Made by a program: the position numbers and the translations under genes. The notes under the pieces were generated by a model. It made no database searches and was not told the DNA's origin. It saw nothing but the letters and a program-made list of their open reading frames with translations. A stretch of 51,526 bases of DNA from Candidatus Woesearchaeota archaeon. Lineage in GTDB: Archaea; Nanobdellota; Nanobdellia; Pacearchaeales; GW2011-AR1. Below are positions 1 through 8,632 of this stretch, piece after piece. Numbering within the stretch: the stretch's first letter is position 1; each line of letters starts with the position of its first letter. The DNA is taken from positions 1 through 51,526 of the forward strand of contig CAYOYC010000001.1 in assembly GCA_964408125.1 (NCBI GenBank), given 5' to 3'.

Positions 1-1
1 G

Positions 2-499
2 ATATTGATTTCATTGAGCTTGATTGGTTTAGGCTCTGGGTATTTGATAAGATTAAGATATTTCAAGAGAAAATTAAGAATGATGGGGGAGGAAGAAATG
101 CTTTTGTTGCAATTAATAAAAGTTATACAGAGAGATTGTTTTGAGAGCAATAGACTATCGATGGAAGAATATAACGAAGCGATGATACAATACGAAAGCA
201 GATTAAGTGATATTATAAAGGAAAGAGTAACTATAGAATCTCAGATAGCAAATTTGCTAAAATTTAGAGGAAGAAGAAAGGCGTTAATACAAGAAAGAAG
301 TAGATTGCTTGCGATGGTAAGGCAGGTTCAGGATGATTATTTGAATAGGGATAAAATAGAGACTAGATCATATGAGAACATGTTGAAAACATATTCTTCT
401 AGACTAAATGACATACAAGAAGAATTAGCGTTTATGGATGCGAAAGAAGAAATAGGAAGAAGTAGTAGCTTTTGGAAAAGATTAACTGGAAGGGCTTAA
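2..499 (+). CDS. hypothetical membrane-anchored coiled-coil protein, 5' end cut by window edge
   Basis: Frame is open to the window start. A hydrophobic stretch is followed by a charged helical region with an internal repeat (SMEEYNEAMIQYESRLSDI / SYENMLKTYSSRLNDI). Confidence 0.45.
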   Translation: MLISLSLIGLGSGYLIRLRYFKRKLRMMGEEEMLLLQLIKVIQRDCFESNRLSMEEYNEAMIQYESRLSDIIKERVTIESQIANLLKFRGRRKALIQERSRLLAMVRQVQDDYLNRDKIETRSYENMLKTYSSRLNDIQEELAFMDAKEEIGRSSSFWKRLTGRA

Positions 500-506
500 A
501 AAATAT

Positions 507-794
507 TTAATTTATGTTATTTATTTTTATCAAGTGCCAACCAAATTGAGTTTTGATTGGACCAATTACGTCACCACCCTTATTTTTCTCGTTGAAACAT
601 ACTGTTTCAAATTCTGGGACCATCATGCCTTTCCCAAACGTTCCCAAACTTCCGCCATTTTTCTTTGATGGACAAAAAGAATATTTCTTAGCAGCATCTT
701 CGAAAGAAATTTCGTTTGCTACAATTTGCTTAAGTAAAATTAAAGCCTCATCCTCTGTTCTTACTAGAATGTGGGAAGCTGAGACTTGATTCAT
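507..794 (-). CDS. parvulin-type peptidyl-prolyl cis-trans isomerase (PpiC family)
   Basis: SASHILV...FEDAAKKYSFCPSKKNGGSLGTFGKGMMVPEFE...GPIKTQFGWHLIKI is a typical parvulin core. The ATG at 794 abuts the upstream stop and is preferred over the start at 815. Confidence 0.8.
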   Translation of the reverse strand: MNQVSASHILVRTEDEALILLKQIVANEISFEDAAKKYSFCPSKKNGGSLGTFGKGMMVPEFETVCFNEKNKGGDVIGPIKTQFGWHLIKINNIN

Positions 795-795
795 C

Positions 796-1161
796 TTACA
801 GGAAAATAATTCCATCTTTAGTTAAAGCCGTAAATCTTACACCTACTGGGATTGATAATAGTGCTGATAATATCGCCATGTGCTCTTTTCCGGTTCCAGA
901 TGCAATAGAAAGTGAGACTTCAGAATTGAAATCTGAGTCTAGTTTTGGTTTTAATTTTTCTACTAATTCCTTCTTCAACGCGACAAGCGATTTATCTAAA
1001 TCAACTTCAACAAAATCAAATTGAGCACCCTCTACGTTGAAATTTTGCGCATAATTAGCTCCGATAACAATTATCTTTTCCCATTCTCCTCGTTTAATTA
1101 GACCAGAAACTTGACCCCAGGTCCCTTCACCTTTAGATAATAATGCTACTAATTGTGCCAT
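796..1161 (-). CDS. hypothetical small alpha/beta protein
   Basis: 121-aa ORF with a TATA-like box centred about 25 nt upstream of its ATG. No family recognised with confidence. Confidence 0.45.
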   Translation of the reverse strand: MAQLVALLSKGEGTWGQVSGLIKRGEWEKIIVIGANYAQNFNVEGAQFDFVEVDLDKSLVALKKELVEKLKPKLDSDFNSEVSLSIASGTGKEHMAILSALLSIPVGVRFTALTKDGIIFL

Positions 1162-1181
1162 TTCTTAGAAAATCTTCTTGG

Positions 1182-1190
1182 CTTTTTAAG
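1182..1190 (-). promoter_or_regulatory. TATA-like box (minus-strand reading cTTAAAAAGcc) about 25 nt upstream of the ATG at 1161
   Basis: Same box type and spacing as at more than 15 other gene starts in this window. Confidence 0.4.
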
Positions 1191-1205
1191 TATTTATGTA
1201 CTAAA

Positions 1206-1607
1206 CTATTTAAGTTTCTTTTCAATTCTCTTGAGCTGTGCTTGCATCTCTTGGATTTCCCTCTCAGCTTTTTTATTAACTTGGTAATCATACTCTGCCC
1301 GCAATCTGTCTTTTTGCCCCTCTCTATTTTGACTCATTAAAATTATTGGTGCTTGGATTGCTGCAAGGCAAGACAAAACCAAATTAAGTAAAATAAATGG
1401 GAATGGGTCAAATGCACCAGTTGAAGTATATTTAATCAAAAAATAACCATTGATAGAAATCCAAACTATTAACACTAATGCGAAAAATCCAATAAAAAAC
1501 CAGGATCCCATACTGGCTGTTAGTTTGTCCGCCGCCCTCTGTCCAAAACTCCATCTTTGTTTTGCAACTGGATGATTTTTTTTCAGTAAATTTTCCTCTT
1601 CTCTCAT
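1206..1607 (-). CDS. DUF1003 family membrane protein
   Basis: FGQRAADKLTASMGSW, two TM segments, then DPFPFILLNL...SQNRQ-like and a C-terminal coiled coil match the DUF1003 layout. Confidence 0.7.
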   Translation of the reverse strand: MREEENLLKKNHPVAKQRWSFGQRAADKLTASMGSWFFIGFFALVLIVWISINGYFLIKYTSTGAFDPFPFILLNLVLSCLAAIQAPIILMSQNREGQKDRLRAEYDYQVNKKAEREIQEMQAQLKRIEKKLK

Positions 1608-1672
1608 TTTTATTTTAAGATTTTATAGTTTAATAGTCTTTTGATTTCACGGAAAGCCTCGTGCAAAGAAAG

Positions 1673-1681
1673 CTTTAAAAA
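1673..1681 (+). promoter_or_regulatory. TATA-like box (agCTTTAAAAAcc) for the L1-P0-P1 operon; predicts a 5' UTR of about 75 nt
   Basis: Box matches the window consensus. Unlike most first genes here, L1 lies about 100 nt downstream, so this transcript would have a leader. Confidence 0.35.
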
Positions 1682-1780
1682 CCCCTGAAACACAGAATAT
1701 TTACTAAGACCTTAGACCAACGCGTCTCATATGGGAGTTTTGCGGAAGCAAAATTTGGTAGGGAAAAGTCTTTGAAAAAT

Positions 1781-2392
1781 ATGAATATTGATGAAGCAAT
1801 AAAATCTTTGAGAAGTCAAGAGAAAAGAAAGTTTATTCAGTCGTTAGACTTGATTATAAATTTACAAAAGATTGACCCAAGAAAAGAGTCTATTAATACT
1901 GTTATTACTATTCCTCATCCTCCTATAAAAAGACTTTGCGCTTTCTTAGCTAAAAAGTCTCCAATTATTAATACAATTGTAAAAGAAGAATTTGAATTAT
2001 ACAAAGACAATAAGGCGATAAAAAGACTTGCAAAAAAATATGATGCATTTATTGCTTCTGCCTCATTAATGGGTGCTGTTGCTACAAAGTTTGGTAGGTT
2101 TTTAGGTCCTTTAGGAAAAATGCCTACTCCTCAAGCTGGAGTTATTATGCAAGAAACTGATGCTAACATTAAAGAAATAGTTGAAAAAATGTCTAAAACA
2201 ACAAGGCTTAGAATAAAAGAAAAAAGCATAAAGCTATCTGCCGGAAAAGAAGATATGTCTGATAAAGAATTGGCAGAAAATGTTGAAGAAGTTATTAGGG
2301 CTATTATAGAATTACTTCCAAATAGAAAAGATAACATAAGTAATATTTCAGTTAAATGGACGATGGGAGCGCCTGTTGTCGTGGATAAATAA
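1781..2392 (+). CDS. rpl1: 50S ribosomal protein L1 (uL1)
   Basis: MNIDEAIKSLR..., LGPLGKMPTPQAG motif, and position ahead of P0/P1. ATG at 1781 preferred to TTG at 1772. Confidence 0.9.
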   Translation: MNIDEAIKSLRSQEKRKFIQSLDLIINLQKIDPRKESINTVITIPHPPIKRLCAFLAKKSPIINTIVKEEFELYKDNKAIKRLAKKYDAFIASASLMGAVATKFGRFLGPLGKMPTPQAGVIMQETDANIKEIVEKMSKTTRLRIKEKSIKLSAGKEDMSDKELAENVEEVIRAIIELLPNRKDNISNISVKWTMGAPVVVDK

Positions 2393-3213
2393 TGGTAGAT
2401 CACAAAACACATGTTTCTGATGCGAAGAAAACAACAGTTAAACAACTTGTTGATCTAATGAAGTATAAGACAGTAATGATTGTTTCTATAAAAGGACTTC
2501 CTTCTGCACAATTCCAAGAGATTAAGAAGAAATTAAGAGCACATTCAAAAATAAAAGTCGCAAAAGGAAATTTGGTTAATTTAGCCTTAGAAAAATCTGG
2601 AAATGCTGCACTGAAAGATTTAGAAAAACATGTTGGTGCTGATTGTGCTTTATTATTTTCTGAAGATGATGCCTTTATACTTGCTGGAATACTTAATGAA
2701 TCTAAATCACCTGCAAAAGCAAAAGCTGGGCAAATCTCACCTGAAGATATTTGGGCTGAAGCTGGCGGAACAGATTTAATACCTGGGCCGGATATTTCTG
2801 CATTAGGCGCTGTTGGATTAAAGGTTAAAGTTGAAAATGGAAAATTAGCAATTCAAGCAAGAGCAATTATATGTAAAAAAAATGAACCCATCTCTCCCGA
2901 GAGAGCGGCAATATTAGCTAAGTTAAATATTATACCTTTTAAAATAGGTATTGAGCCCATTGCAGCTTATTGTGATGGAAAAGTTTATTCTGGAATCAAG
3001 GTAGATAAGGAAGAAAATTTGCATATATTAAAAAATATGTATGCAAAAGCTATTGCGTTTGCTGTTTCATTACCATTCGTTACAAAAGAATCATTATCTT
3101 TTATATTAGGAAAAGCGGCGGCACACGAAAATGCAATTGCTGGATTAATTAAGACTGATGCTATTACCGAAGTACCGAAAGTCGAAGAAGTAAAGACGGA
3201 GATTTCACAATGA
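2392..3213 (+). CDS. rplP0: 50S ribosomal protein L10 / acidic stalk protein P0 (uL10), short form without acidic C-terminal tail
   Basis: N-terminal L10 domain (KTVMIVSIKGLPSAQFQEIKKKLR) and TAATG overlap with the L1 stop. It ends ...EVPKVEEVKTEISQ, without the GLxxLFG tail that P1 carries. Confidence 0.88.
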   Translation: MVDHKTHVSDAKKTTVKQLVDLMKYKTVMIVSIKGLPSAQFQEIKKKLRAHSKIKVAKGNLVNLALEKSGNAALKDLEKHVGADCALLFSEDDAFILAGILNESKSPAKAKAGQISPEDIWAEAGGTDLIPGPDISALGAVGLKVKVENGKLAIQARAIICKKNEPISPERAAILAKLNIIPFKIGIEPIAAYCDGKVYSGIKVDKEENLHILKNMYAKAIAFAVSLPFVTKESLSFILGKAAAHENAIAGLIKTDAITEVPKVEEVKTEISQ

Positions 3214-3410
3214 AGACACTGTTAGAAATTCAGGGCGGAGCAAGAGATGGATTGCGAGTTACCTACAACGGCTCTGATTTGGTAATCTCGGCCGATAGCT
3301 CACTGGCAACTGGAAGAACACCTAAACCGACAGGAAACCCAGAAAGAGTGGAAGTTGTAACAATGCCTCAACTTTATCAAACTCCAATTAAAACTGGAGA
3401 AACACAATAA
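3210..3410 (+). CDS. hypothetical 66-aa protein inserted between P0 and P1
   Basis: ATGA overlap with the P0 stop, and its TAA is directly followed by the P1 ATG. It is the only open frame in this 201-nt segment. The Gly/Thr/Pro-rich sequence has no recognisable family. Confidence 0.4.
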   Translation: MKTLLEIQGGARDGLRVTYNGSDLVISADSSLATGRTPKPTGNPERVEVVTMPQLYQTPIKTGETQ

Positions 3411-3695
3411 ATGGAATACATATATGCGGCACTTTTGTTGCACAAACTAGGTCAAACAGTTGACGAAGCTAACTTGAATAAAGTTATCTCGGCTACTGGC
3501 GCATCTGTTGATGAATCCAAGGTTAAAGTCCTTGTAGCCTCATTGAACGGTGTGAATATTGACGAGCAGTTAGCTAATGCGGCTATCGCATCTGCATCTG
3601 CATCTAGTGCACCAGCAGCAGAAGCACCTAAGGAAGAGAAGAAGGAAGAGCCAAAGGCTGAAGCAGCTGAAGGTCTTGCGAGCTTATTCGGATAA
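3411..3695 (+). CDS. rpl12: 50S ribosomal stalk protein P1 (archaeal L12)
   Basis: MEYIYAALLLHKLG..., Ala-rich hinge, KEEKKEEPKAEAAEGLASLFG tail. Confidence 0.92.
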   Translation: MEYIYAALLLHKLGQTVDEANLNKVISATGASVDESKVKVLVASLNGVNIDEQLANAAIASASASSAPAAEAPKEEKKEEPKAEAAEGLASLFG

Positions 3696-3801
3696 GATTA
3701 TTTAAGTTTATTCGCGGGGCCTTGGACTTAGTTAGTCCTGCTTCGATAAATTGGATGATTCGTTCTGAAACGGCTCAGTTAGACTTGCTAGGTCTGTGAA
3801 G

Positions 3802-3807
3802 TTTTTT
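3802..3807 (+). terminator. oligo-T tract after weak hairpins downstream of P1
   Basis: agacttgctaggtct followed by gtgaagTTTTTTgg. Archaeal terminators are typically T-runs. Confidence 0.3.
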
Positions 3808-3915
3808 GGCTAACTGTAGTTTTACATTTATTATCTATCTACTCGCTTTATAAGAATTCAATATATAAGCTCGAGAACCTTATTAATTTATAAAAGCATT
3901 TTATTTTGAAAATTG

Positions 3916-4551
3916 ATGAAATATGACTCCAAAAAGCCCAGGGAGAGAGTGTCTGTATCCTCGATACTCCAAGTGATGTATGGCTGTAAGTATCAGCAGT
4001 ATATGCCTTCTGTTATAGGGGAAATTAGAAATGGTGGCGGTTTATCTCTTCTTGCTAGACGGGGGGAAAAAAAGGGCTTTAATGTTGCTAAAGAAGATAT
4101 TGAGAATTTCAAGAAGGCTGTTGAAAAAAAAGTGGGGGAAAAAAGACACAGAGAATCTATTGCAATAAATTTTAGGGGAGATTATGACATAACTGGTCCA
4201 CAGGTTACTAGATTATATAAGCGATTAAATGAACACCCTGAATTGAAAGTATATCGTATGCCCTCTGGGCGTGGAGGCTATTTGTATGGAGACTTCCCAC
4301 CGGTTAGAGAAGTTGCTGCACAGATCCTTCATAAAATGGGTATGTCTCTTAAGGAAAAGAACCCTGATTTAGGAAGGAGACTCCTCGACGAAGTTGCGCC
4401 CATTAATCATAGTTTAGTTTCGCTCCAATCTGGATCAGATATATATAGAGAAGAGATGGCAAGACAATTTGCGGTTCATCCATTTACCCCACGAACAAAA
4501 GAAAGGGGAAGGTTTAGTGCGATTCGTAGTGTAAATTATTTACAAGGTTGA
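3916..4551 (+). CDS. hypothetical protein (orphan, basic, no recognised domain)
   Basis: 211/212-aa ORF flanked by unusually long non-coding spacers. Visibly less A+T-rich than its surroundings. Confidence 0.5.
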   Translation: MKYDSKKPRERVSVSSILQVMYGCKYQQYMPSVIGEIRNGGGLSLLARRGEKKGFNVAKEDIENFKKAVEKKVGEKRHRESIAINFRGDYDITGPQVTRLYKRLNEHPELKVYRMPSGRGGYLYGDFPPVREVAAQILHKMGMSLKEKNPDLGRRLLDEVAPINHSLVSLQSGSDIYREEMARQFAVHPFTPRTKERGRFSAIRSVNYLQG

Positions 4552-4705
4552 TATCCTGTCTTGCCTTTGAAATCATCCTAGTTTCAAACAACGTTTCTAG
4601 GCAATATTTATACTACCTGCAAAAAATAGAAAAATTCAAGAGAAAAGATATCACCCATAATACTAAATCTTAAAAAGCATCAATTCTAAGTCAAATTAGC
4701 GTATT

Positions 4706-4787
4706 GCCCGGATGGCACAATGGTACTGCGCCGGTCTTGAAAACCGGTTACCTCACGGTTTTTCCAGTTCGATTCTGGATCCGGGCG
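4706..4787 (+). tRNA. tRNA-Ser (anticodon UGA)
   Basis: Hand-folded cloverleaf. Acceptor GCCCGGA/TCCGGGC, 3-bp D stem, anticodon stem CCGGT/ACCGG with loop CTTGAAA. Long variable arm, T arm TCCAG-TTCGATT-CTGGA, discriminator G. No encoded CCA. Confidence 0.9.
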
Positions 4788-4797
4788 TTCAACGAAG

Positions 4798-5355
4798 ATG
4801 GTGAAAAAAACAAAAAGTGTTTGGATAATTGTAGGAATTGTTGTTGCGATAGCTTTAATTAGTGTAACCTTTTATTTAAATAATATGGATAATAAAAAAG
4901 TTGCAGTACTTGAAACATCGATGGGAACTATCGAAATTGAATTATATTCAGACATGCCAATAACAACTGGTAATTTTGAAAACTTAATCAATAAAGGGGT
5001 TTACAATGGCGTTATATTTCATAGAATCATGGACGGATTTATGATACAGGGTGGGGATCCAACTGGAACGGGCTATGGTGATCCAAAAATTCAAAAAATA
5101 AAAGATGAATTTACACACGCCGGTGGGAATAAAAATAATAGAGGCACAATTTCTATGGCAAATACTGGACCCAATACTGGAAGTAGCCAGTTTTTTATAA
5201 ATCTTGTAAACAACAACTTTTTAGATACAAAACATCCTGCTTTTGGAAATGTAATTTCTGGAATGGATGTCGTCGATAAAATTGCAAAAGTACAAACAGA
5301 TTCTAACGATAAACCATTGACTCCAGTTACAATAATTAGCGCAAAGATAAAATAA
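4798..5355 (+). CDS. cyclophilin-type peptidyl-prolyl isomerase with N-terminal membrane anchor
   Basis: FHRIMDGFMIQGGDPTGTGYG, GTISMANTGPNTGSSQFFI, HPAFGNVISGMDVVDKI. A TM helix follows the start. Confidence 0.9.
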   Translation: MVKKTKSVWIIVGIVVAIALISVTFYLNNMDNKKVAVLETSMGTIEIELYSDMPITTGNFENLINKGVYNGVIFHRIMDGFMIQGGDPTGTGYGDPKIQKIKDEFTHAGGNKNNRGTISMANTGPNTGSSQFFINLVNNNFLDTKHPAFGNVISGMDVVDKIAKVQTDSNDKPLTPVTIISAKIK

Positions 5356-5356
5356 A

Positions 5357-6136
5357 ATGGAAATATGTGCTCTTGCATCTGGGAGTTCTGGAAATTGTTT
5401 TTATGCAGGGGATGGAAATTCTAGTATACTTATTGATGCTGGAGTAAGTTGCAAAAAGATTGAAGAGAGGATGTTGACCATTAATAGAAAAGTGGAAAAT
5501 GTCAGGGCTGTTTTCATTACGCATGAACACTCTGACCATATAAGAGGAATAGATGTTTTTGCTAGAAAATTTAATGTGCCCATTTTTGCTACAAGGGAAT
5601 TAATTAAAAATAATTTTCTATGCTCAAATCCTGATTTAATTCAAACCTTTAAAGTGGGTGAAAATATTAAAATCGGAGGAATGGAAATATCTTCATTTTC
5701 TAAAATTCATAAGGCTATAGACCCGCTTGGGTTTACGATTGTTGATTCTTCAAGTGGGAAAAGAGCCTCAATTATAACAGATGCCGGGCATGCTTGTAAA
5801 AATATTATTGAAAATGTTTCTGATGCGAATGCGTTATTTTTCGAATCTAACCATGATTTAGAAATGTTAGAAAATGGTTCGTATCCATACTTTTTAAAAA
5901 AGTGGATTAGCAGCGATAATGGACATTTGTCTAATATGCAATCTGCATTGTGCGTCCTGGAAAATGCTAAAAGAAAAATGAAGAGTATGGTATTGTGCCA
6001 CTTGAGCGAACATAATAATACGCCAAAACTAGCGTTAAATACTCATAGAAATTTATTAAAACATCGGATGGATTTGAAGCCGCGTATTTTTATTTCTGAT
6101 AAAGAAAGCCCTAGCGTGATTGTAAAACTTAATTAA
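5357..6136 (+). CDS. MBL-fold metallo-hydrolase (YycJ/PhnP-like)
   Basis: SGSSGNC...LIDAG, the HEHSDH motif, and later D and H ligands (ITDAGH, CHLS). Confidence 0.8.
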   Translation: MEICALASGSSGNCFYAGDGNSSILIDAGVSCKKIEERMLTINRKVENVRAVFITHEHSDHIRGIDVFARKFNVPIFATRELIKNNFLCSNPDLIQTFKVGENIKIGGMEISSFSKIHKAIDPLGFTIVDSSSGKRASIITDAGHACKNIIENVSDANALFFESNHDLEMLENGSYPYFLKKWISSDNGHLSNMQSALCVLENAKRKMKSMVLCHLSEHNNTPKLALNTHRNLLKHRMDLKPRIFISDKESPSVIVKLN

Positions 6137-7607
6137 TTTTTATTGGTTGAAATTCTTTAATGAATTTTAGCCCATCTCCTAATCTCTGCTCACTCTCTGA
6201 ATAAAGTGTCATTAATTTATCCCCTTTATTTACTTTCCCCAAGTGTTTATATAAATAAATTCCTGCTGAATTTGTTTCTGGCGTACCTAGAATTCTACAT
6301 ATAGAATTGATTTTAGAGTTGTGTATTTCTGTAATCTTCCCAGACTTTTCTGCATAGATTATTTTTTGCTTTTTTGCTAGTTTTAGATTTGAAACTCTTT
6401 TGTCGAAATCATCTGATTTATTCTGTGCATTTATTATTTCTTTGAATTTTTCGTACGCTCTTCCGTTTTCCAATATATTTCTTGCCTTAGATTTTGAAAA
6501 TAATATTCCGCAAAGCGACATTAGTTTCGCTGACAGGAAAATAGATTTTTCCTTAAGGTCTTTGGGACAATTCGGTTCGTTTTTTAGAACGGATAAAATA
6601 TCTTTCATCTCCAAAACCGGCCCTATTCCATTTCCTATTGGTTGAGTTCCGAGTGTATATATTGGTTTTACTTTTATATTAAAATGTTTAGCTATTTTCT
6701 TAAATTTCCAACCAAGCGCTTTTGCTTTAGCTTTTGTTTTTATCTTGCCACTTCCGTATGGAATATCGATTATAATTCTATTAGAGCCCGCTGCAATCTT
6801 TTTCGCAAGAATAGAAGCTAGAAGTTGTGGTTCTACGTCTAAATTTAATAATCTTTCTACTCTTATCATTTTATCATCTGATGGTGCCAATCCTAACGAT
6901 CCGCCCCACACTAAACAAGCATTTGTTTTCTCGACAACTTTTTTTATTTCTTCTATAGAAAGTTCGACATTTGATATTGTTTCTACTGTGTCTGCTGTTC
7001 CTGCTGCTGACGTTATTGCTCTAGATGAAGACTTGGGTATTTTTAGGCCCGCAGCTGCACAAATTGAGACAACTAGGGGAGTCGTTCTATTTCCCGCGAT
7101 TCCTCCGATACAATGCTTATCTGCAATTATTTGTTTTCCAAAATCTAATTTCTTACCCGTATTCACCATCGCCTCTGTCAGTTGTATAATTTCTGTATAT
7201 GAAAGTCCTCTTAGTTTTTCTGCTGCTACAAAATAAGCAATTTCCGCCTCTGTTAGGTTGTTATTCGAGATTTCTAATACTAGGGTTTTAATTTCTTCCC
7301 TCGTTAAAGATTCCCCGTTCATCTTCTTCTTTATTATTCTAGCCCCTGCAAATATCTCGGCTGTTCCTATATCTAAATTTTCTCCGTTTTTATTTCCTAA
7401 TAAAGAAACTATTTCGTTAGAAAGACCTATTTCTCCTTTCTTAACCAAATCTGGAAAGATATCCACAACTGCGTATATCTTTTTTCTTTTATATCTGATA
7501 GAAATTCTTTCATCTACATGTATGTTTAATTTCTTGGAAGTATCGTCGCCAAGAATAACCACCGGCCTTCCAGCAAGCCAGTTAAGATTCTTTGACTTTA
7601 GCTTCAT
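6129..7607 (-). CDS. deoA: AMP phosphorylase / archaeal thymidine-phosphorylase-family enzyme
   Basis: 492 aa. An N-terminal extra domain precedes the glycosyl-transferase family 3 core (HCIGGIAGNRTTP, TSAAGTADT, SDDKMIRVE). Confidence 0.75.
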   Translation of the reverse strand: MKLKSKNLNWLAGRPVVILGDDTSKKLNIHVDERISIRYKRKKIYAVVDIFPDLVKKGEIGLSNEIVSLLGNKNGENLDIGTAEIFAGARIIKKKMNGESLTREEIKTLVLEISNNNLTEAEIAYFVAAEKLRGLSYTEIIQLTEAMVNTGKKLDFGKQIIADKHCIGGIAGNRTTPLVVSICAAAGLKIPKSSSRAITSAAGTADTVETISNVELSIEEIKKVVEKTNACLVWGGSLGLAPSDDKMIRVERLLNLDVEPQLLASILAKKIAAGSNRIIIDIPYGSGKIKTKAKAKALGWKFKKIAKHFNIKVKPIYTLGTQPIGNGIGPVLEMKDILSVLKNEPNCPKDLKEKSIFLSAKLMSLCGILFSKSKARNILENGRAYEKFKEIINAQNKSDDFDKRVSNLKLAKKQKIIYAEKSGKITEIHNSKINSICRILGTPETNSAGIYLYKHLGKVNKGDKLMTLYSESEQRLGDGLKFIKEFQPIKIN

Positions 7608-8632
7608 TCTCCAAAAAGTTCATTTAATTTACCTTTTCTGTAGAACTCAACTATAATTAAAACGTAAGCTAAAATAAGCGGCCCTAGGATAAGCCCTATA
7701 AACCCGAATGCTAATAATCCGCCGACAACTCCTATAACTGCTACGAAAATATTTAGACTAGAATGTCTAGATACAAAATACGATCTTAAAACGTTATCTA
7801 TTGTTCCAACAAAAAGCATTCCGTAAAAGAACAATATTATACCACTAACTACCTGTCCGCTCACCATCAAATAAAGAGAAACTGGGATCCAGACTAACCA
7901 AGAACCTAATACCGGAATAATTGATGCGACCATTGTAATTATTGTTAAAAATAAAACTTTTGGAACGCCGAGTATCCAAAGACCTAATCCTAAACAAAGA
8001 CCTTGTATAATACCAACTAAAACCTGCCCTAGCATTATGGAGTTTGTTATATTTCTAAATTCTTTTGCAAATTTCTCTTCTGTTGATTTTGATAATGGTG
8101 ATAGTTCGGATAGATATGCCCTGACTTTCTCCGAATCTTTTGTCGCAAAATAAAATGTAAGTATAAAAATACCAAATTGCATTAATAGGTTTGGTAAATT
8201 TGAGAATGCTTCGCCAAATGAGTTGATAGTAAACTTAAAGAAATTTGCAATGAAGAGATTTACCTGGACGGCGGCTAGAGTTGCAACTTCTGCGCCAAAT
8301 AAACCCCCCAGTAGAGTTCCTAGGGTGCCTGATATGTCCATTTTTTGAACATACAGATATGTGTTAAAAATTTCTTTTACAAATGACGGCAAAAGCCAAA
8401 TCATTGGGATTGCAACAATTACTAATATAAGAAAACAAAAAACCAACGTCGAAAGATTTTCCCCTTTTAATATTCTTTTAATCGGGTAATAAAGAGGATG
8501 GACTATATACGCTACAAAAATACCTAAAAAAATTGCTAGAATTAGTGGTTTTAAAACAAATATTGCGGCTATGAAGACAGCGAGGATTAAAAGTCCTACA
8601 ATTACCTTATTAACTACTTTTCTGTCTACCAT
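7604..8632 (-). CDS. AI-2E family transporter (PerM/UPF0118)
   Basis: Multi-TM protein with the family's typical C-terminal half. The ATG at 8632 (MVDRKV) sits about 25 nt from a tttataaa box, so it is preferred to 8698. ATGA overlap with deoA. Confidence 0.75.
   Translation of the reverse strand: MVDRKVVNKVIVGLLILAVFIAAIFVLKPLILAIFLGIFVAYIVHPLYYPIKRILKGENLSTLVFCFLILVIVAIPMIWLLPSFVKEIFNTYLYVQKMDISGTLGTLLGGLFGAEVATLAAVQVNLFIANFFKFTINSFGEAFSNLPNLLMQFGIFILTFYFATKDSEKVRAYLSELSPLSKSTEEKFAKEFRNITNSIMLGQVLVGIIQGLCLGLGLWILGVPKVLFLTIITMVASIIPVLGSWLVWIPVSLYLMVSGQVVSGIILFFYGMLFVGTIDNVLRSYFVSRHSSLNIFVAVIGVVGGLLAFGFIGLILGPLILAYVLIIVEFYRKGKLNELFGE

Follow-up and report, generated by a model that had tools for sequence, protein, structure and literature searches.

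An open reading frame confined to one species at the P0-P1 junction of the ribosomal stalk operon in a DPANN archaeon: a probable young orphan derived from a 239-bp insertion

The insertion of ORFans into native operons, downstream of a native gene, has been described in Bacteria (Price, Arkin and Alm 2006, PMC1480536); one example is E. coli sdhCDAB-b0725-sucABCD (PMC1480536). In these cases, a gene without outside homologues lies between native genes, the age of the pair is the age of the new gene, and the new gene is expressed from the native promoter. In Archaea, the ribosomal stalk of Pyrococcus horikoshii has the composition aP0(aP1)2(aP1)2(aP1)2 (PMC7768734). The characterised archaeal P0 has a C-terminal region homologous to that of aP1, and there are seven factor-binding sites per stalk (PMC7768734).

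In the present study, we analysed a 66-codon open reading frame (ORF66) between P0 and P1 near the start of a 51,526-nt stretch of DNA (the window) from a Candidatus Woesearchaeota archaeon. As in the bacterial ORFans, ORF66 has no outside homologue, and it is absent at the orthologous site of relatives in which the flanking genes are adjacent. With no T run above 3 in the insert, ORF66 may likewise be expressed from the native promoter. Unlike the bacterial examples, ORF66 lies in an archaeal ribosomal-protein operon and within the last codons of the upstream gene, it borrows the stop codon of P0 and the ribosome-binding region of P1, and the same junction has been struck repeatedly by unrelated ORFs across the family. 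As in archaeal L1-P0-P1 operons such as that of P. horikoshii, the L1, P0, and P1 genes are adjacent and coupled, and P1 keeps the C-terminal factor-binding tail; the differences are that an ORF stands between P0 and P1 and that the P0 protein, with 273 aa (259 aa elsewhere in the genus), is short and has no C-terminal region like that of aP1. Like a MITE or an insertion sequence, the insert that gave rise to ORF66 is short and lies between two direct 11-nt copies of target sequence, but it has no terminal inverted repeats, other copies, or transposase, and one frame is open throughout. The insertion of ORFans into operons is a known process, and ORF66 would add a case from an archaeal stalk operon.

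The source genome (G000) is AT-rich (33.5% GC) and comprises 649 kb in 39 contigs, with a completeness of 82%; the host is a small-genome DPANN archaeon. The window starts with the stalk operon, in the gene order L1, P0, ORF66, and P1 (Table 1). The L1 stop and the P0 start overlap in TAATG, and both the N-terminal L10 domain and the archaeal/eukaryotic insertion domain of P0 were matched (PF00466 and PF17777). According to the sequence and the list of open reading frames, ORF66 is butt-joined on both sides, as the earlier note had claimed: its start codon overlaps the P0 stop (TGA, 3211-3213) in ATGA, and its TAA is directly followed by the P1 ATG at 3411 (TAAATG). The P0 protein ends ...KVEEVKTEISQ and, also as described before, lacks the GLxxLFG tail that P1 keeps. 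The claim that ORF66 is the only open frame in the segment holds for the insert, across which it is the sole stop-free frame of six, but a trivial 47-aa antisense ORF with a GTG start (3300-3443) is present too. The GGAG upstream of the ORF66 ATG is weak evidence for initiation, because Shine-Dalgarno-like motifs are hardly used in this genome (barely enriched, 0.15 vs 0.10). Proteins that end at the conserved GGAG before P1 have C-termini such as ...GEEK* and ...GGDK*.

Table 1. Coordinates of the stalk operon and of the insertion in the window
Feature	Position	Strand	Remarks
L1 (ribosomal protein L1)	1781..2392	+	First gene of the stalk operon; Pfam PF00687, E = 6e-31
P0 (uL10)	2392..3213	+	273 aa; Pfam PF00466 (E = 2e-18) and PF17777 (E = 2e-15)
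Direct repeat, left copy	3147..3157	+	11 nt, AATTAAGACTG; target duplication or microhomology
Species-specific insertion	3158..3396	+	239 bp, about 45% GC, single-copy; absent at the same site in G002-G007
GGAG, possible Shine-Dalgarno site	3198..3201	+	8 nt 5' of the ORF66 ATG; read from the sequence
ORF66	3210..3410	+	66 codons; ATG at 3210 inside ATGA with the P0 stop; TAA at 3408-3410
Direct repeat, right copy	3386..3396	+	11 nt, AATTAAAACTG
GGAG before the P1 start	3396..3399	+	Terminal in P0 or the junction ORF; conserved across the family
P1 (aP1/L12)	3411..3695	+	94 aa; Pfam PF00428; C-terminal end ...AEGLASLFG, canonical tail
First T6 run 3' of the operon	3802..3807	+	Likely archaeal terminator; termination inferred

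We found P0 in 39 of 41 related genomes, and the loci were then compared. In the six congeners of the source species (G002-G007), P0 has 259 aa and ends ...(S/T)LIKTG(D/E)(N/T)Q*, the P1 ATG follows 0-2 nt on, and ORF66 is absent; the 239 extra bases occur in the source genome alone among the seven species of the genus. In a maximum-likelihood tree of L1 and P0, the source species groups with G006 and the G002-G004 clade, whereas G005 and G007 fall outside (support 89/99) and G010 represents the next genus out. Pairwise identities agree with this tree. As the source species is nested within its genus, the insertion is derived, and a single gain in its lineage would be sufficient to explain the data. 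We rejected the converse history, in which an ancestral long P0 tail was deleted in the congeners, since at least three identical deletions would be needed given the tree.

The site of insertion lies within the last five codons of P0. Its boundary slides within the flanking repeat, so that 3147-3385 is an equally possible extent, and the GC content of the segment is 44-47%, in comparison with 33.5% in the genome. In the repeat search, the two copies of the direct repeat, with the consensus AATTAA(G/A)ACTG, matched at 10 of 11 positions with a spacing of 239; agreement at 10 or more of the 11 positions would arise by chance at the insertion junctions with a probability of 1.7e-5. In the P0 gene of the source genome, the left junction reads ...GGATTAATTAAGACTG followed by ATGCT..., and the right junction, 239 nt on, reads ...CCAATTAAAACTG followed by GAGAAACACAATAAATGG, where the ancestral P0 end resumes; at the corresponding place, G007 has CTCATTAAAACGGGAGAAACACAATAAATGG. 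In the alignment with the six congeners, P0 residues 1-256 are ancestral, and the insertion codes for the rest of the protein, starting at residue 256 (DAITEVPKVEEVKTEISQ).

As 239 is not divisible by three, P0 continues through 18 codons of the insert until a TGA is met, and the codons of the ancestral end (IKTGETQ*) now fall in the frame of ORF66. For the same reason, the butt-join between ORF66 and P1 and the GGAG before P1 were inherited from the old P0-P1 junction, and neither evolved for ORF66 itself. The earlier proposal that ORF66 is a remnant of a remodelling of the P0 C-terminus is therefore correct in part: the DNA was inserted into the last five P0 codons, and the last 8 residues of ORF66 (PIKTGETQ*), together with the P1 junction, represent the old P0 end in a new frame, but the other 58 residues are derived from neither P0 nor P1. 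We also considered whether the P0 end occurs a third time, upstream of the ORF66 start codon (AAGACGGAGATTTCACAATGA vs AAAACTGGAGAAACACAATAA), but the match was not significant (p = 0.17).

ORF66 is rich in Gly, Thr, and Pro and includes the stretch DGLRVTYNGSDLVISADSSLATGR. A search of 5.8 billion clustered proteins returned only the self-match, and no homologue was found in 40 relatives or in viral, metagenome, and genome collections. The earlier note had described the peptide as unlike ribosomal proteins, in agreement with our results: ORF66 has no Pfam match at E <= 1 and no similarity to P1 beyond that of shuffles. In the case of the HMMER search against 1.8 billion representatives, only five giant repeat proteins (P0002-P0006, E down to 3.5e-12) were obtained. 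We did not regard these as homologues, as they belong to unrelated families, the single alignments score 17-28 bits, and the E-values sum weak matches over 5-10 tandem repeats; the search thus gave no true homologue of ORF66. A diverged duplicate of the P1 N-terminus was also considered, since the two share 'VISA' at the same position and the DNA ATCTCGGC; the local alignments were no better than those of shuffles (DNA, p = 0.61; protein, p = 0.93).

The frame of ORF66 is free of stop codons over 83 codons, from the TGA at the left junction (3156-3158) to the TAA, and is the only such frame of the six. In a given frame, a stop-free run of 83 codons was seen in just 0.4% of shuffles; the open frame exceeds chance. 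The codon score of ORF66 is 0.35 per codon, within the range of the genes (0.39 +/- 0.12). This score is higher than that of composition-matched open shuffles (p = 0.001), yet 14-19% of the spurious open frames of the genome equal it; codon usage is consistent with coding but not decisive. The GC contents at the three codon positions are 0.53 (GC1), 0.48 (GC2), and 0.30 (GC3; 0.26 in the genome), in the order GC1 > GC2 > GC3, as in genes. As the GC excess resides in codon positions 1 and 2, the pattern is that of a coding sequence and not of a structured RNA. A single-sequence AlphaFold model of ORF66 had a mean pLDDT of 62 and a pTM of 0.26, with a beta-hairpin at residues 15-28 as the only element. 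The peptide is probably new and largely disordered, with no demonstrated role in the stalk.

To place ORF66 in a wider context, we compared 109 P0-P1 junctions of the family and order (30 loci, L003-L032, and 80 regions, L046-L125, one of which had no P1 match). The distance from the P0 stop to the P1 ATG was under 30 nt in 73 junctions, 30-99 nt in 12, and 100 nt or more in 24 (n = 109). Outside the genus of the source species, gaps of at least 100 nt were found in 23 of 102 junctions (about 22%). Each of the 24 large gaps holds one ORF on the same strand, of 34-171 aa; examples are those of L011 (G024, 127 aa), L017 (G012, 132 aa), L081 (171 aa), L057, and L079. Ten of the 24 start in an ATGA overlap, and 18 of the 24 stop within 5 nt of the P1 ATG. 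In an all-against-all BLASTP comparison, the junction ORFs were mutually unrelated, except for one weak pair, and the three that were tested matched no Pfam family. Many of the encoded proteins have an end resembling G-G/E-x-K, because the 3' ends carry the GGAG(G) before P1. In the case of G012, the junction ORF terminates in a copy, 35 nt long, of the P0 end (p = 0.005), an arrangement that the source genome shares. ORF66 would evidently be one more, and the youngest, case of a recurrent filling of the P0-P1 junction.

The earlier note had also placed weight on the P0 without an acidic tail next to ORF66. We found that the C-terminal tail GLxxLF(G) is kept in 8 of the 109 P0 genes and absent in 101; the genes that lack it either are short or bear E/K-rich extensions devoid of the motif. 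The frequency of junction ORFs is the same beside P0 genes with the tail (2 of 8) and without it (22 of 101), and the implied link fails. As far as these 109 genes tell, the loss of the tail is a family-wide trait that is unconnected with ORF66. With the tail kept in only 8 of 109 P0 genes, six factor-binding tails, and not seven, would be expected per stalk in most of these archaea.

We consider it rather probable that ORF66 is a young, species-specific orphan that was derived from an insertion and is translated as ribosomes pass through from P0 to P1. The comparison shows that 239 bp of DNA entered P0 within its last five codons, with a target duplication of 11 nt, and that the old P0 end was reused as the 3' end of ORF66, its stop codon, and the ribosome-binding region of P1. 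ORF66 would be co-transcribed with L1, P0, and P1, because the insert has no oligo-T run and the first T6 lies past P1. After termination at the P0 TGA, ribosomes would reinitiate at the ATG that overlaps it, read the 66 codons, and be released at the TAA directly before the P1 ATG; translation of P1 would therefore stay coupled to that of the upstream genes. DNA inserted at this site would probably persist only if it kept an open pass-through frame and the GGAG of P1. This need for ribosome flow to P1 would explain why all the occupied gaps contain single open frames, whatever these encode.

On its own, ORF66 is a minor and probably neutral species-specific orphan, and its position beside the stalk genes gives no ground for a ribosomal or stalk annotation. 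It is, however, a dated example of a new ORF that entered an essential and tightly coupled operon. The six congeners provide the ancestral state, and the borders of the insertion and the reuse of the stop codon and the ribosome-binding region can still be read from the sequence. Of greater interest than ORF66 alone is the family-wide pattern: the survey, with 24 of 109 junctions occupied and 101 of 109 P0 genes without the tail, revealed two lineage-wide peculiarities of the DPANN stalk operon.

A broader and more tentative reading, which we hold to be possible rather than probable, is that the P0-P1 junction in this DPANN family serves as a gene nursery, with unrelated orphans in about 22% of the junctions and ORF66 as the youngest. 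DNA that landed there would automatically be transcribed and translated at the levels of ribosomal proteins, and, since ribosomes must pass from P0 to P1, it would survive only if it were open in one frame. If the nursery reading is true, ORF66 would offer a tractable natural system in which to study how new proteins are born, with the 11-nt duplication and the old P0 stop still visible.

The principal alternative to a translated pass-through orphan is that ORF66 is a functional, lineage-specific small protein, associated with the stalk or otherwise, that is under selection as a peptide. The 83-codon open frame, the gene-like codon usage, the ATGA and TAAATG joins, and the location within a highly expressed operon would all be expected of such a gene, and, taken together, the junction ORFs have clearly been maintained as open frames. 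On the other hand, ORF66 occurs in one species and has no homologues, its single-sequence model is poor, and its right-hand join came from P0. The idea of a stalk-associated peptide, raised in the earlier note, finds no support, as ORF66 is missing from the six congeners and from every collection searched. Moreover, the junction ORFs of other genera are unrelated to ORF66 and to each other, and thus no common stalk function is indicated. We consider a functional peptide unlikely.

It is very unlikely that P0 and ORF66 are one gene of about 339 aa, a P0 with a C-terminal extension supplied by the insertion, that was split by an indel in sequencing or assembly or by a real frameshift, possibly with a -1 bypass. 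By codon score, the first 54 nt of the insert fit the P0 frame better and the remainder the ORF66 frame, which runs to the ancestral P0 stop, and P0 extensions of 30-60 aa exist in relatives of other genera. Those extensions are E/K-rich, however, and ORF66 is not. Two assemblies are identical base for base, and there is no homopolymer or slippery heptamer in the P0 frame at 3190-3213: the P0-frame codons GTA AAG ACG GAG ATT TCA CAA TGA contain no heptamer of the form X XXY YYZ, and no stable fold that could stimulate a -1 frameshift was found downstream. In addition, the ATGA overlap is usual for the junction ORFs of other genera, which are clearly separate genes.

The second assembly is contig k141_534232 (3.8 kb) of ENA ERZ27248937, which has the same L1-P0-ORF66-P1 arrangement, with L1 called as a 203-aa gene. 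This separately assembled contig is identical to the window at 210-3445, although both assemblies may share one sample and their independence is not clear. After this identity up to 3445, the second assembly (L037, 3237-3486) is only 74% identical to the window through P1 (3446-3695). The P1 DNA of the window is 96% identical to the P1 of G002 and G003, whereas the P0 is only 79-80% identical. This pattern suggests either that P1 underwent recombination or gene conversion or that the assembly switched at the conserved 5' end of P1. The contigs of L004 (G006), L007 (G004), and L018 (G017) end inside P1, which suggests that the conserved 5' part of P1 tangles the assembly graphs of co-occurring species.

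The breaks and switches of contigs of this genus in the conserved P1 5' end, and the divergence of the second assembly from 3446, could suggest that the insertion is an artefact in the form of a chimeric join; the 11-nt flanking duplication, which resembles a target-site duplication, could suggest a mobile element such as a MITE. However, an 11-nt repeat cannot mislead de Bruijn assemblers that use k-mers of 21-141, and the 239 bases lie between P0 and P1 in both assemblies. G006 is the closest relative for the genes to either side of the junction, and therefore the window is no large-scale chimera. In the case of a mobile element, the repeat search found no terminal inverted repeats, no transposase was present, and the insert had no second copy in its own genome (BLAST and six-frame comparison) and no copy in 400 genomes of the order, in which we observed only chance matches of 16-25 nt. 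No match was found in phage or plasmid collections. We sought a donor within the own genome, in any frame, and in phages and plasmids, and rejected both. An artefact or a mobile element is thus very unlikely.

The last alternative is that the 239 bases are an RNA element, either an mRNA intron or a structured regulatory or small RNA. Precise removal of the insert with one copy of the repeat restores the ancestral P0 frame and end (...LIKTGETQ*), and the GC content is raised in an AT-rich genome. The 9-bp imperfect stem described in the earlier note, CGAGTTACC (3255-3263) and GGTAATCTCG (3281-3290), is present, but it forms no part of the minimum-energy fold, and the folding of the region does not surpass that of shuffles (z = 0.26); the folding z-scores were 0.08, 0.26, and 0.39. 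With Rfam cmscan over positions 1-8000 (E <= 1), we obtained only a tRNA (4706-4787) and no group I or group II intron. We scanned all pairs of positions 239 nt apart and found no bulge-helix-bulge motif at any frame-restoring junction pair; the best candidate had a central helix of 4/4 A-U pairs, with 3/5 and 2/5 pairs in the flanks. In view of these results and of the GC excess in codon positions 1 and 2 but not 3, an intron or a structured RNA, which the earlier note had left open, is hardly credible.

Two further features were noted in and beside the operon. The sequence CTTTATCA, in the 3' part of the insert (3373-3380), is weakly TATA-like and lies 31-38 nt 5' of the P1 ATG; it could in principle drive a separate P1 transcript. 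Just 3' of P1, a 212-aa ORF (window 3913-4551), which had no match in five genomes of the same genus and no Pfam family, represents a second species-specific orphan beside the operon. Among the junction ORFs of other genera, those of L017, L098, and L102 have in common a motif of the approximate form Y-x-EAK-x-I-(V/L) and may belong to a small helical family.
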